This document shows, piece after piece, positions 4,087-17,706 of a stretch of 64,000 nucleotides of DNA. Numbering within the stretch: the stretch's first letter is position 1; each line of letters begins with the position of its first letter. This stretch comes from an uncultured Gemmatimonadales bacterium. GTDB taxonomy: Bacteria; Gemmatimonadota; Gemmatimonadetes; Gemmatimonadales; GWC2-71-9. The position numbers and the translations under genes were made by a program. Under the pieces are notes generated by a model, which saw nothing but the letters and a program-made list of their open reading frames with translations, made no database searches and had not been told where the DNA came from. The DNA is taken from the NCBI GenBank assembly GCA_963795085.1, contig CAWCFX010000004.1, forward strand, positions 544,001 to 608,000. The letters are read 5' to 3'.

Positions 4087-5321
4087 TCAAGCCACGAGGC
4101 CAGCCGCTTTTCCCCGCACCAGTTTCCCCGCTCCCCAGCGAGTGGTGATGCGGTCAATGGCGGCCTGCAGGTTGCCCGGCGGGGTGTAGCGGACGGGGAC
4201 CTGCGCCGCGGAAGCGGGCCGGCGTTCACCCGCCTTGAGGAGGACATCAGACCAGAAGAGGTCCAGCTGCGATTCCTCTTCCACCAGGCGGTCAGCCCGG
4301 ACGGTGACCGTGCGGATCGCGACCGGCCGCGCCCTGGCCAGCGTGAACGCCCGGCGTGCGGCGTCCCACAACTCCACGTCCAGCAGGGCGGGGGCGAGGG
4401 CCAGCCCGTGACGGGCCGTCAGGTAATCGGTATAGCACAGTTCGATCACCACCCGCCGGGCCGCCAGGTGCCGGGCCCGCAGCCGGCGGCCCAGCCGCTC
4501 CGTCATCCGGCGAAGCAGGGTATGCAGCAGTCCCACATCGTTGCTGTCGCTTCCCAGCGTATGGCTCAACTCGAACTCGGCCCGCACGGCGGGCGGAAGC
4601 ACCGGGCGGGGATCAATGCCGCGGGCCCGGGTTACCAATTCGCGCCCCGGCCGCCCGAAGACCGAACAGGCCTGCTGCTCGGTCAGCGCCGCGACCTCGC
4701 CGATCAGGTCCAGCTGGTAATCGTCAAGCCGGGTCCGCATGGGCGCCGGCAGATCGGGCAGGAGTTCGACCTGGTGGGGCGCCAGGAAACCGGCCTCGTG
4801 ACCGGCTTGGACTTCCACCAACGGCTCGCCATCGCCGCCACCGTCTAGCCGGTCCGCCCGCACTGCCGCTTGGCTGACCAGCTTGTTGGTGGCCACCCCG
4901 ACGGTGAGGGGAAGCCGGATCCGGTCGCGGGTCTCCCGCTGGATCCGGTCCGCCAGGTCTGCGGCGGGGCCAAAGAGCCCGGCGGTGCCGCTCACATCGA
5001 GGAAGGCGTGGCCGTACCCCGCGGCTCGATGACCGGGGCATAGCAGCGAAGGACCTCGTGCAGCGCCCGCGATGCCCGGGCGTAGAGCTGGGGATTGGGC
5101 GGGAGAATCACCAGGTCGGGGCAGATTTTCCGGGCTCGGGGCAGGAGCATTCCTGGCCGGATGCCGGCCCGCCGGGCCTCCAAGGAAAGCGCCAGGACCG
5201 TGGCCCGGTCCGCCCCCGGGGGAGCGATCACGATGGGACGGCTCCGGAGCCCCGGCGCCGCCAATCCCTCTACCGTGGTACAGAAGGAAGGGGGGTCTAC
5301 ATAAAGAACGGCCCGGAGCAT
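4087..5321 (-). CDS. imuB: Y-family polymerase homolog, ImuB/DinB-like (probably catalytically inactive); frameshift at 5017-5020
   Basis: N-half is in ORF 4992..5375 from ATG 5321 (MLRAVLYVDPPSFCTTVE...RPIVI...EARRAGIRPGM...ARKICPDL). C-half is in ORF 4087..5385 (YGHAFLDVSG...VGVATNKLVS...ARGID...QLDLF clamp motif...AIDRITTRWG). One extra G in the GGGG run joins them. The DinB SIDEA motif reads GYGHA. Confidence 0.82.
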
Positions 5322-5375
5322 CTTCGGTCTTTCTTCGGTTATTCCGGAAGATATGCCTCCCGCCGCCGACGTCAA
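5322..5375 (-). promoter_or_regulatory. Sigma70-like promoter TTGACG-N16-TATCTT with downstream CCGAA-N6-CCGAA operator candidate
   Basis: -35 at 5375-5370, -10 at 5353-5348, CCGAA repeats at 5338-5334 and 5327-5323 next to the ATG. The same layout occurs at 16684-16738. Confidence 0.6.
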
Positions 5376-5503
5376 GGCTCAACACTTTTCCCCGGGACTG
5401 CTACTTTGAATCTCTGAAACGCAGTGGAATCTCCCGCCGTCTGACCGGTTACCTGGGCCCAGCTTTCCGGGGCCCGGCTCACTTTCACCGTGGACCTTCC
5501 TTC

Positions 5504-15382: not shown

Positions 15383-16516
15383 CTACAAGCCAGCTATCCC
15401 CTGGAAGAGGGCGACCTGGTGGTTGGCGGGTTTCCGCGCGGGCGCGCGATAGCGTTCTTCCCGGGTCCGGCGGAAGCCAAACTCGGCTTGGAGTTCCTGC
15501 AGACGCCGGGTCAGGGCGGCCTGGTACTCCCGCGACACGTAGTAACGGCTCTCGAAGTGGGCGTGGTAGCGGGCCGCCACCTCGGGGAACTCCGCTGCCA
15601 CGAAGGCGAGGAAGCGGGGGGCCAGGACTGGATCGAGCCGGAGCGCCGACCCGTGGACGTAGTATGCCCCCGCCTCCTTCGCAGCGGCGAAGAGAGCGGC
15701 CAGCCCCGGGCGATCGTCACTGATGCCGGGCAGGATCGGCGCCACCAGCAAGCCGGCGTGAATCCCCCCGTTTACGAGCGTTCTGAGCGCACGGAGCCTG
15801 GCCGCCGGAATGGGCGACCTTCGCTCCAGCCGCCGGGCCAGCGCGGCGCTGGCGGTGAGGAGCGAAATGTTGACGGTGACCTCGTGGATCCGGGACAGCT
15901 GCTGCAACAGCTCGAGGTCCCGGGTTACCAGCGGCGACTTGGTGATGATCCCGATCGAGAGCCCACGGTAGGACCGGAGCCGCTCCAGGATCTGCCGGGT
16001 GATCCGGTACGTCCGCTCGGCCGGCTGGTAGGGATCGGTGGCAGTGCCTATGACCAGCGAACTGTCCCGGAGCCTGGCGGGGTCCAGTGTTCTTGCCAGG
16101 ACCTCGGGTGCAGTGGCCTTGACGAGGATGTCCTTCTCGAAGGCCTCAAACTCACCGCCCGGCCCCCTCTCCGTAAGCGGGGAGGGGGAGCCGTTGGCCA
16201 TGGCTCTCTCGGTGGCGTAGCGATGGGTCTCCCGGGCGTAGCAATAGCTGCAGCCGAATTCACATCCGACGTAGGGGTTGATGGACCAGTAGCCCATACC
16301 CGTGGTGGCCGGCGTGTTGAGCACCGAGCGGACGTCCCACTCGATGAAGCGGGCGCCGCGCTGGCGCTGATCCAGGACGGAGAGGGCCGGCGGACCGGCG
16401 GACAGCAGCACCAGTTGCGCTTCGCTCGTGCCTCGCTTGGCTGGGGTGAGCACGGGAAGTTCGCGCCTGGCATGTTGTCCGTCGGAACGCCGAGCCGTCT
16501 CTCCGGCTAGCCACAT
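15383..16516 (-). CDS. Radical SAM protein, SplB/Rv2578c/PA0069-like DNA-repair-associated family
   Basis: SINPYVGCEFGCSYCYA (CxxxCxxC), IGTATDPYQPAE, IITKSPLVTRD, APILPGISD. Start placed at ATG 16516, overlapping the upstream small ORF. Confidence 0.88.
   Translation of the reverse strand: MWLAGETARRSDGQHARRELPVLTPAKRGTSEAQLVLLSAGPPALSVLDQRQRGARFIEWDVRSVLNTPATTGMGYWSINPYVGCEFGCSYCYARETHRYATERAMANGSPSPLTERGPGGEFEAFEKDILVKATAPEVLARTLDPARLRDSSLVIGTATDPYQPAERTYRITRQILERLRSYRGLSIGIITKSPLVTRDLELLQQLSRIHEVTVNISLLTASAALARRLERRSPIPAARLRALRTLVNGGIHAGLLVAPILPGISDDRPGLAALFAAAKEAGAYYVHGSALRLDPVLAPRFLAFVAAEFPEVAARYHAHFESRYYVSREYQAALTRRLQELQAEFGFRRTREERYRAPARKPANHQVALFQGIAGL
16151..16190. repeat. Palindromic element embedded in frame in the radical SAM gene
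   Basis: CTCACCGCCCGG-CCCCCTCTCCG-TAAG-CGGGGAGGGGG-AG; encodes SPSPLTERGPGGE. Confidence 0.6.
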
Positions 16517-16674
16517 CTGCCCCATCCGCATTGCAGGCAGTGCACACAACCCGAGTTGCGCGCGATCGGCCCGGAGCAGTCGGGGCAGACGCGCACCAGG
16601 GCAATGAGCGCCGGTTTGATTTGCGGCGTGGGGGTGGCCGGGCGGGGTTCTTGGGGAGGGGGAAAGTGGAGCAT
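16507..16674 (-). CDS. 55-aa zinc-ribbon protein resembling the class II ribonucleotide reductase C-terminal tail
   Basis: Too short for the ORF track. Manual translation: MLHFPPPQEPRPATPTPQIKPALIALVRVCPDCSGPIARNSGCVHCLQCGWGRCG*. First ORF after a clear promoter; overlaps the radical SAM start. Confidence 0.75.
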   Translation of the reverse strand: MLHFPPPQEPRPATPTPQIKPALIALVRVCPDCSGPIARNSGCVHCLQCGWGRCG

Positions 16675-16683
16675 GGGTCTGCC

Positions 16684-16738
16684 TTCGGCTTATGTTCGGT
16701 ACTACATCCGAATATACGCCGAACCTTTTGGCCGTCAA
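16684..16738 (-). promoter_or_regulatory. Sigma70-like promoter TTGACG-N16-TATATT overlapped by TTCGG-N6-TTCGG-N8-CCGAA-N6-CCGAA
   Basis: -35 at 16738-16733, -10 at 16716-16711. Four pentamers at 16684, 16695, 16708 and 16719 form a symmetric 40-bp site. Confidence 0.65.
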
Positions 16739-16806: not shown

Positions 16807-17706
16807 ATGCCCCGGAGACTTCTGCTGGCCCTGACCCTTCCGTTCCTGGCGCTGGCCTGCGAAGGCCGCCTGTCCAGCCCGGAAGCCAATGCCGTCGACG
16901 GCGGCTCCGCCGGCCGGATGGACGCCTTGCAGTCCCGTGGTTACGACGGTCCCGCCGAGCCGGCCACGCCGCCTCCAGGTCTTTCGATCAAGGCCGTTTC
17001 GTCGCCCGGAACCATTCCCCGGGACTCGGTCTCACTTTCCATGATCATCCGGACCGGCAACGCCTACATCGAGGTGGACTCCCTCGAGTCCGCTATCGCG
17101 GCCGTCCGGCGGCTGGCGGAGAGCGCCGGCGGGTATATCGCCAATAGCGCCATTCAGTCGGGCCAGGGCCAGCTCCGCCAAGCCACGCTGGAGATCAAGA
17201 TCCCCTCCACCCGCTACGACCAGGCCATTGGTGGCCTGGCCGCGATCGGCAAACTGGTGAACTCCTCCACCAGCGCGCAGGACGTGGGCGAAGAGTTCGT
17301 GGATGTGAGCGCCCGGGTGTCCAACGCCCGCCGGATGGAGGAGCGGCTGGTGAACCTGCTTGCCACCCGGACCGGGAAGCTGGAAGATGTGCTGGCGGTG
17401 GAACGGGAGCTGGCGCGGGTGCGGGAAGAGATCGAACGGTATGAAGGCCGGCTGCGCTATCTCCGAACCCAGGTCGCCATGAGCACGCTGTCGGTGACGG
17501 TATCCGAGCCGGGCCCAGTGGTGGGGCAGCCGGGTTCCAACGTGGTAGTCGAAGCGCTCAAGCAGGCCTGGCGCAACAGCGTGATGGTGGTGGCCAACGG
17601 GATTGAGATGCTGGGCGCGGTGCTGCCGGTGGCGTTGCTGGGCCTGGTGGCCTGGCTGGGCCTTCGGCGGTGGCGGTCGCGGAGGGCCGCGGTCTCACAA
17701 GCCTGA
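16807..17706 (+). CDS. DUF4349 domain lipoprotein
   Basis: ATG 16807, lipobox LALAC, MIIRTG, GGYI, QDVGEEFVD, DVLAVERELARVREEIE, C-terminal TM helix. Confidence 0.85.
   Translation: MPRRLLLALTLPFLALACEGRLSSPEANAVDGGSAGRMDALQSRGYDGPAEPATPPPGLSIKAVSSPGTIPRDSVSLSMIIRTGNAYIEVDSLESAIAAVRRLAESAGGYIANSAIQSGQGQLRQATLEIKIPSTRYDQAIGGLAAIGKLVNSSTSAQDVGEEFVDVSARVSNARRMEERLVNLLATRTGKLEDVLAVERELARVREEIERYEGRLRYLRTQVAMSTLSVTVSEPGPVVGQPGSNVVVEALKQAWRNSVMVVANGIEMLGAVLPVALLGLVAWLGLRRWRSRRAAVSQA

Follow-up and report, generated by a model that had tools for sequence, protein, structure and literature searches.

We have analysed a window of 64,000 nucleotides from an uncultured Gemmatimonadales bacterium (GenBank assembly GCA_963795085.1, contig CAWCFX010000004.1, positions 544,001 to 608,000), and all coordinates below are counted from its first letter. 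On the minus strand, the window carries a gene for a peptide of 55 aa (16507..16674, stop included), recognised by reading frame and conservation, and directly behind it a gene for a radical S-adenosylmethionine (SAM) enzyme of 377 aa (15383..16516), which together with its relatives is called rSAM here. The peptide ends with CPDC-x9-C-x2-C-x2-CGWGRCG-stop and has Cys at residues 30, 33, 43, 46, 49, and 54. Residues 30–55 (16510..16587, minus strand) form a six-Cys zinc-ribbon domain, delimited by homology to the C-terminal tail of NrdJ, the class II ribonucleotide reductase (RNR). Residues 1–29 are variable, Pro-rich, and leader-like, and are of low confidence in the structural model. The two genes share 10 nt, ATGTGGCTAG (16507..16516, minus strand), so that the rSAM ATG lies within the final codons of the peptide.

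A single sigma-70-like promoter was found between 15200 and 17000, TTGACG-16-TATATT (16738-16711, minus strand), with 10/12 matches where shuffled sequences lead one to expect 0.2 promoters. Its -35 hexamer TTGACG is at 16733..16738 and its -10 hexamer TATATT at 16711..16716, both on the minus strand, with a spacer of 16 nt. An earlier note on this DNA had described the short open reading frame (ORF) as following a strong promoter and overlapping the rSAM start; both statements hold, and the two genes can be placed in one operon. In addition, two candidate LexA boxes lie in this region. Box 1, TTCGGcgtataTTCGG (16708..16723, minus strand), is a strict TTCGG-N6-TTCGG repeat that overlaps the -10 hexamer, and TATATT within the box is kept in most related loci. 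Box 2 is inverted, reads TTCGGcttatgTTCGG on the plus strand (16684..16699), and is located between the -10 hexamer and the start codon; at its place most related loci have a CCGAA-N5/6-CCGAA element. Overall, the comparisons described below make it very probable that this is a two-gene SOS operon, in which a boxed promoter is followed by a 55-aa paralogue of the NrdJ tail, whose stop overlaps the start of an rSAM resembling spore photoproduct lyase (SPL) in fold.

The 55-aa reading frame is a conserved gene

In what follows, G-numbers denote genomes (G000 is the source genome), L-numbers denote loci, and f1, f2, f3, and f7 denote families. The rSAM-anchored sample returned 30 loci, rSAM being present in 33/41 related genomes. 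The peptide-anchored sample comes from a pattern scan with one genome per species, which is biased to CGW[GA]RC, and comprises the best 80 of 202 relatives; 78/80 of these records are titled Gemmatimonadota, Gemmatimonadetes, Gemmatimonadales, Gemmatimonadaceae or Gemmatimonas, and the other 2 are short contigs binned elsewhere. A phylum sample covers 121 genomes. The unpublished genomes G018 (L024), G083 (L175), and G121 are included in some counts, and dropping them shifts each count by at most 1.

The earlier note had let its proposal stand or fall with the conservation of the frame and its Cys pattern upstream of orthologous rSAM genes, and both are indeed kept: a six-Cys ORF lies directly upstream of rSAM on the same strand in 25/30 rSAM-anchored loci. 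Among the exceptions, a contig end truncates L013, L030 has the ribbon ~1.07 kb upstream of rSAM with an intervening ORF that looks DinB-like by eye, and L026 retains a 16-codon remnant of the peptide after an intact operator, while L033 and L035, both of family f2, have no peptide. Viewed from the other side, rSAM is found downstream of the peptide in 75 of the best 80 peptide loci, in 71 of them within 213 nt. Among the other 5, two records end within 53 nt of the peptide, and in L084, L089, and L108 no rSAM was found in the 2.5 kb available downstream.

The ribbon is present in 105/110 loci, corresponding to 96 distinct DNA sequences. We have compared these 96 versions of the 27-codon ribbon, which were selected by the six-Cys pattern, codon by codon. 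In the codons for the six Cys, Pro31, Gly50, and Trp51, the first two letters never differ between the 96 copies, the sole exception being a TCG at Trp51 in one copy, while third positions vary freely; Gly21 in ribbon numbering, for example, is written as GGC 45, GGG 27, GGA 15, and GGT 9 times. At the protein level, none of C30, C33, C43, C46, C49, or C54 varies among the 25 peptides of our peptide alignment (A1), and the corresponding Cys codons are kept in all 96 copies.

Searches of larger collections lead to the same picture. In a large protein collection, there are 223 small homologues of the peptide (E<=1e-3). No Pfam domain was found in any of 120 homologues among the matches listed, and the names given there are 'hypothetical', except for two 'RNR alpha chain' and one 'rubrerythrin'. 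In a representative library, the peptide profile matches 2,220 proteins (E<=1e-3), the top ones being mostly 43–105 aa long with the domain at the C-terminus; the longer matches that were scanned are mostly NrdJ or NrdJ fragments carrying the TSCPD domain. Neither Pfam nor NCBIfam has a model dedicated to the peptide family.

Since many spurious ORFs of the same size overlap this region in other frames, one might suppose that the 55-aa frame is a chance product of GC-rich DNA. This supposition is contradicted by the comparative data and can practically be dismissed, because a conserved frame, invariant Cys, synonymous changes at third positions, and 223 small homologues in the database are what a gene, and not a chance ORF, would give. 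Judging from these sequence patterns, the ORF is a real and conserved gene under purifying selection.

The peptide is related to the NrdJ tail

The earlier note had also likened the peptide to an RNR tail, and this likeness is well borne out. Residues 27–55 match positions 731–759 of 759 in the NCBIfam model NF006417 of B12-dependent RNR (E=1.1e-5). When the peptide alignment A1 is compared with the Gemmatimonadales NrdJ tails (A3) by hhalign, the probability is 97.6% (E=4.3e-12, 37 columns). The C-terminus of Gemmatimonadales NrdJ is CPDCGSQLEFAEGCVKCHVCG[YF]SECG-stop, and the spacing C-x2-C-x9-C-x2-C-x2-C-x4-C-G-stop is identical in the peptide and in these tails. In the NrdJd enzyme of Stackebrandtia (PMC5704485, Loderer et al. 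2017), Zn is bound by C920, C923, C933, C936, C939, and C945, and electron delivery depends on every one of these six Cys. No native reductant was found in that study, which also describes NrdJb as a whole cysteine-rich domain (CRD) split from the RNR as a separate gene, and gives CRD lengths of 150–220 aa. The Cys spacing of the peptide equals that of these six NrdJd residues save for the last gap, which is 4 instead of 5. From these comparisons of sequence, the ribbon is to be regarded as a homologue, namely a paralogue, of the Cys array at the C-terminus of NrdJ.

The earlier note had suggested a comparison with HHpred or Foldseek. The profile comparison is the strong one given above, and the fold search of the peptide model, which found nothing in the PDB at E<=0.001, brought up generic zinc ribbons alone. 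The AlphaFold model is a small three-stranded ribbon with pLDDT 86–90 for residues 31–55 and a low-confidence N-terminus, and its nearest PDB neighbours, none of them significant, are TFS4, ribosomal proteins, and PriA ribbons. A Pfam scan of the peptide gave sub-threshold matches only (TackOD1, IBR). Against PDB sequences, weak Cys patterns of the IBR/parkin type appeared (E>=0.066), which we have judged to be a compositional resemblance.

We have also considered that the peptide might be a tail split off from NrdJ. Five peptide-bearing genomes were checked; NrdJ was found in 4 of them, and each of the 4 ends in its own ribbon. Since NrdJ in the same genomes keeps its own ribbon, the peptide should be a paralogue rather than a split part, and the splitting idea was rejected. 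Most f1 genomes of the phylum sample likewise show two matches each, a short frame and a NrdJ tail; NrdJ-tail matches (27–41 bits, in frames of 729–1260 aa) are widespread in that sample. The NrdJ of G000 (C6:4-1809) runs off its contig after position 581 of the 759 in the model, and relatives were used for the tail. In G020, G021, and G024, which have few contigs, the NrdJ match is split over 2–3 frames, which may be due to frameshift errors.

The peptide also differs from the NrdJ tail. It has no TSCPD or RNR match in Pfam, its 55 aa compare with 150–220 aa for a CRD, and its neighbour is rSAM. The mean net charge of the ribbon is +0.9 (n=96) as compared with -2.9 in NrdJ tails (n=8), the difference lying in the non-Cys residues.

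These data bear on the idea that NrdJ itself is the target, that is, that the free tail supplies class II RNR in trans with electrons, or competes with the tail of the enzyme, and so tunes the deoxynucleoside triphosphate supply, its link with rSAM being one of co-regulation. The homology to the NrdJ tail would fit, as would the survival of the peptide without rSAM in a few genomes having NrdJ. Precedents can be found in PMC5704485: in NrdJd, a subunit can be served at its active site by the tail of a different subunit, and NrdJa+b have a CRD encoded by a gene of its own. On the other hand, NrdJ has an intact tail of its own in 4/4 of the peptide-bearing genomes with NrdJ found, as well as in most f1 genomes. 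The TSCPD portion of a CRD is missing from the peptide, and the charged residues expected to make contact with NrdJ have been exchanged for others. Moreover, the place directly upstream of rSAM is kept in 75 of the best 80 loci, and the peptide gene is never beside nrdJ in the loci examined. We therefore consider NrdJ a rather improbable target.

The radical SAM enzyme

The rSAM carries both the CxxxCxxC motif and the Radical_SAM domain (PF04055, 7.9e-13) by which the radical SAM superfamily is recognised, without a SPASM or twitch domain. The motif, CEFGCSYC, spans residues 85–92 (16241..16264, minus strand) and holds the sole three Cys of the enzyme; these ligands of the 4Fe-4S cluster are invariant in 119 rSAMs and are also the only Cys conserved there. 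The earlier note had called the enzyme SplB/Rv2578c-like, which is correct as far as family resemblance and fold are concerned. Its best NCBIfam matches are NF038135 (Rv2578c, 1.6e-58) and NF033668 (PA0069, 2e-57), but the scores stay below the curated equivalog cut-offs (198.3 bits against 430 and 194.8 against 360, respectively). By these scores, the enzyme is a member of a subfamily related to Rv2578c/PA0069, and not an equivalog of either.

The structural model of rSAM is confident for residues 53–351, while residues 1–52 are disordered and variable in sequence. In Foldseek, the top 6 PDB matches are spore photoproduct lyase structures (4FHC etc.), with E from 9e-8 to 4e-7 and TM of 0.52–0.59, at a sequence identity of 13–14%. 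The likeness is one of fold only: the SPL family model TIGR04070 gives E=0.065 and 12 bits against a cut-off of 400, and a fourth Cys is missing. The rSAM profile found no relevant match among PDB sequences.

The ends of the enzyme deserve mention. A loose Q-x-x-L-L/F motif is present in the last 25 aa of 80/119 rSAMs, with Q367 nearly invariant; in the window it is QVALF, residues 367–371 (15404..15418, minus strand). Within the disordered N-terminal part lies QLVLL, residues 34–38 (16403..16417, minus strand), and a Q-L-x-L is found there in most rows of the rSAM alignment (A2), as read by eye. We take these Q-x-x-L-F/L and Q-L-x-L motifs to resemble the beta-clamp-binding consensus; if this were true, they would place the enzyme at the replisome.

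A Cys-rich peptide encoded beside a radical SAM gene also calls to mind ribosomally synthesized and post-translationally modified peptides (RiPPs), in which case the peptide would be a substrate modified by the adjacent enzyme. SCIFF/ranthipeptide-type systems, which are defined by a precursor family and a maturase with SPASM/auxiliary clusters, offer the comparison. The arrangement is suggestive, as a six-Cys peptide of ~50 aa with a variable N-terminus and a conserved C-terminus lies immediately upstream of rSAM. However, no NCBIfam RiPP precursor matches the peptide at E<=0.1, the NrdJ tail being the sole match; the enzyme has neither SPASM/twitch nor conserved Cys for auxiliary clusters, and its fold is SPL-like. 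In addition, rSAM appears to be LexA-controlled and is widespread without the peptide, and among its neighbours in the loci read we noted neither a transporter nor a protease. A RiPP-like role is thus very improbable.

Candidate LexA boxes and probable SOS control

The region upstream of the peptide gene is conserved as DNA, in the order -35, TTCGG-N2-TATATTCGG, CCGAA-N5/6-CCGAA, and ATG. In G000, TTCGG-N5-7-TTCGG occurs 42 times on both strands. The low-GC intergenic instances precede lexA (two in tandem), recA, a gene of the rSAM_link_UDG type, and the present operon; further ones precede a gene with a weak likeness to 'mobile pair protein A' and a gene resembling Y-family polymerases (box at window 5323-5338). 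Among primary lexA orthologues in relatives, a strict TTCGG-N6-TTCGG lies within 130 nt of the start in 24/24, and 23 have it twice around the -10. The box is absent at 5 second LexA-like paralogues (0/5). Across the phylum, the strict box is also found upstream of rSAM in 41/43 further loci, whether the peptide is present or not.

As the motif recurs at lexA, recA, and rSAM loci, we interpret it as this lineage's LexA box, and propose the TTCGG-N6-TTCGG direct repeat as the candidate LexA box of Gemmatimonadales. The candidate sites are those at the lexA loci of relatives (L144-L167), at G000 C2:35965-36005, and at window 16684-16723. The period of the repeat matches the alphaproteobacterial GTTC-N7-GTTC type. 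As judged by titles and abstracts, our literature search found no published LexA motif for Gemmatimonadetes or Gemmatimonadales. The word 'damage-inducible' in the earlier note is thus given substance by two boxes of a motif that also stands at lexA and recA, and SOS control of the operon is implied by these sites. We read rSAM as a core SOS gene, between whose operator and start the peptide gene seems to have been inserted. Such control would agree with two reports in which SplB/COG1533 genes are SOS-regulated in other phyla (PMC8565304, PMC3765255), and with a third, which gives a LexA chromatin immunoprecipitation site for Rv2578c (PMC3381160). Of the sequencing runs found, two were DNA runs with small shares and none was an RNA run.

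The TTCGG and CCGAA elements were also considered as an RNA hairpin in the 5' untranslated region. This was set aside, since the first TTCGG precedes the -10, and since lexA carries the same direct repeats without an inverted partner.

Several additional observations were made around these boxes. Two radical-SAM-related genes of G000, C1:802881-804191 (minus strand) and C1:3281-4120 (plus strand), both stand behind TTCGG-N6-TTCGG; one is rSAM_link_UDG (TIGR03916), and the other bears a weak resemblance to 'radical SAM mobile pair protein A'. The second, divergent LexA-like gene of f2 genomes (L168-L172) has 26–36% identity to G000 LexA and no upstream TTCGG box. In the window, a gene at 4087-5385 (minus strand) that is Y-family polymerase-like (DinB/ImuB type, from its translation read by eye) starts at ~5320, directly after a strict CCGAA-N6-CCGAA box (5323-5338). 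Its frame is split over the overlapping ORFs 4992-5375 and 4087-5385, which may reflect a frameshift or an assembly error.

Probable translational coupling of the two genes

Of 67 distinct junctions, 61 have an ATG, GTG or TTG in frame with rSAM at -10 to +3, counted from the end of the peptide stop, an overlapping or abutting arrangement that is forced in part by the conserved R-C-G-stop codons. Codon usage offers a further hint. Arg24 of the ribbon is written as AGG or AGA in 25/94 Arg codons, as compared with 5.4% of 2,911 Arg codons in rSAM ORFs, and AGA at this place creates the overlapping ATG, as in the window. In L011, the conserved Q-L-x-L starts 11 nt past the peptide stop, so the rSAM start must lie inside the peptide gene.

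With stop and start overlapping and the N-terminal half of the peptide unconserved, one could suspect a cis-acting leader, whose translation controls rSAM or delivers ribosomes to its start and whose product has no function. Such a role for the whole frame is hardly credible, given the strong selection at the amino-acid level on 26 residues, the homology of these residues to a functional protein domain, and the existence of monocistronic copies with no downstream gene on the strand.

At L062 2772-4131 (and also in L064), genes of the PEP_mutase family and of a DinB_2/mycothiol-S-transferase-like type lie between the peptide and rSAM. The presence of a thiol-transferase-like protein in the operon may bear on thiol chemistry.

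Distribution of the pair

The free peptide was found only in two families of Gemmatimonadales, f1 and f3. In the phylum sample, the short-frame peptide (39–70 bits) occurs in 45 f1 genomes plus 1 partial case, that is, in 46/54 of f1, and in 0/28 of f2; for f3, it was found in 7/8 genomes (first sample). Actually, most f1 genomes have both genes (43), as compared with rSAM only in 3, the peptide only in 3 (one at a contig edge), and neither in 5. Separately, a peptide-profile match of 38.8 bits in a short frame of 161 aa was observed in family f7 (G135:C13:4408-4515), which could be a free ribbon elsewhere.

Proposed mechanism

Based on the above analyses, we propose the following course of events. 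Upon DNA damage, LexA would leave its boxes, and the peptide and rSAM would be made together, the enzyme being translated by coupled re-initiation. The peptide would fold on Zn through C30, C33, C46, and C49, and C43 and C54 would be left over to act as a redox pair, in the manner of C933 and C945 in NrdJd. The peptide could then provide the active site of rSAM with reducing equivalents from thiols, or with an H atom, as the tail does for NrdJ. Since the Cys of rSAM are limited to the three cluster ligands, the enzyme could not itself supply such a thiol. We hold this part, from LexA release through coupled synthesis and the Zn ribbon with its C43/C54 pair to the thiol or H-atom service, only tentatively, as its steps taken jointly are somewhat more likely to fail than to hold. 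The best explanation as a whole, operon and mechanism together, comes close to an even chance without quite reaching it.

A bolder form of this proposal can be given. The NrdJ tail would be a portable thiol/electron module, copied out to become the second subunit of an SOS-induced, two-component radical DNA-repair enzyme, where it would supply what a Cys-less rSAM cannot, and peptide-less relatives would use an internal Cys, e.g., Cys343, instead. We regard this as possible but doubtful. Both forms draw on a contrast in the Cys counts over 119 rSAMs, from which L026 (a remnant) and L178 (at a contig start) were set aside, giving 95 + 22. A Cys at rSAM alignment position 343 (Q343 in the window) is found in 0/95 peptide-linked enzymes and in 14/22 peptide-less ones, and a Cys at positions 258 and 290 in 0/95 and 9/22, respectively. 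The loci concerned are L197-L216, L033, and L035.

A number of observations weigh against the mechanism, and they are collected here. The Cys343 contrast appears to track phylogeny (mostly f2 versus f1+f3) and thus few independent events, which makes it a lead only; moreover, G071 and G114 are without both the peptide and Cys343. In f2, rSAM is present in 18/28 genomes, none of which has the peptide, and the 13 f2 loci that were read are all LexA-boxed. The enzyme also stands alone in G071, G102, and G114 of f1 and, as a truncated remnant, in G026 of f3. Conversely, G070 has an intact monocistronic peptide gene behind a strict LexA box, with a convergent gene opposite, and an intact peptide without rSAM is also seen in G126 (=L084), L089, and L108, amounting to about 3 lineages. 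Opposite-strand genes follow the peptide in L089 and L108, and no rSAM lies downstream in G126/L084; with the A2 profile, no rSAM was detected in G070 (98% complete) or G126 (99%). Furthermore, the redox or thiol-donor role of the peptide is carried over from NrdJ by analogy, and the charge shift of the ribbon (+0.9 against -2.9) fits a new partner and equally well the binding of nucleic acid. Overall, the pairing is strong and not obligate in the genomes compared, and each gene can occur alone. The prediction of a complex between rSAM 40-377, the peptide, 4Fe-4S, and Zn had a score of 0.00 and was made without controls, so it weighs neither way.

Because peptide copies occur alone and the ribbon charge has changed, the idea of an action on NrdJ, discussed above, stays alive, and so does that of an adaptor. 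An adaptor would be a purely structural Zn(Cys)4 ribbon that binds damaged DNA or an SOS/replisome protein and thereby recruits or positions rSAM, without any redox chemistry. The predicted fold of the peptide is a generic zinc ribbon, whose non-significant neighbours (TFS4, ribosomal proteins, PriA) come from nucleic-acid machinery, and the ribbon has shifted from acidic to slightly basic. The persistence of the peptide on its own, LexA-boxed in G070 and also in G126, L089, and L108, would suit an adaptor as well, and the clamp-binding-like motifs on rSAM suggest work at the replisome. What speaks against it is that six Cys are invariant although Zn(Cys)4 needs four, and that the extra two match the positions of the NrdJd redox pair; besides, the net charge is only about +1, and no known DNA-binding family was matched. 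We judge the adaptor to be unlikely.

Comparison with known systems

Like the zinc finger of the NrdJd CRD, the peptide has six invariant Cys at its extreme C-terminus (C-x2-C-x9-C-x2-C-x2-C-x4/5-C) and is attached to an enzyme of the 5'-deoxyadenosyl-radical type. Unlike it, the peptide is free-standing with 55 aa, has neither the rest of the TSCPD/CRD nor an RNR catalytic domain, is encoded with rSAM under candidate LexA boxes, and has basic instead of acidic non-Cys residues. As described in PMC5704485, NrdJb is a precedent for a Cys array on a polypeptide separate from the enzyme served; the peptide differs from it in being the terminal ribbon only, in having a neighbour that is not an RNR, and in that NrdJ of the same genome is unsplit.

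Spore photoproduct lyase, a radical SAM enzyme of DNA repair with C140 as its H-atom donor, is the best structural match of rSAM. The PDB entry titles for SPL name C140 mutants made for mechanistic work. By contrast, rSAM has no Cys beyond the cluster ligands, and has disordered ends with clamp-binding-like motifs. The SOS-regulated SplB/COG1533 genes (Rv2578c, PA0069) are alike in family matches and in the reported LexA control of this gene class; rSAM is unlike Rv2578c/PA0069 in scoring below the cut-offs, and the portions of the literature searched describe no upstream zinc-ribbon partner for those families. Our literature searches turned up no account of a peptide of this kind or of its pairing with rSAM.

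The pair touches two long-standing questions. One is the function of the widespread SOS-regulated SplB/COG1533 enzymes, and the other is the way in which electrons are handed on by the Cys-rich tail that most class II RNRs have. A free-standing version of the tail with 26 residues, co-expressed with another radical enzyme, offers a small and tractable test object for both. If it is true that the peptide serves rSAM, the tail would be a transferable redox module and the repair enzyme would be a two-component one; if not, the peptide would still represent a new family of SOS-induced small proteins. The analysis has also yielded the candidate LexA box for Gemmatimonadales. Finally, the divergent neighbour of the operon is a DUF4349 lipoprotein, with its start at 16807.

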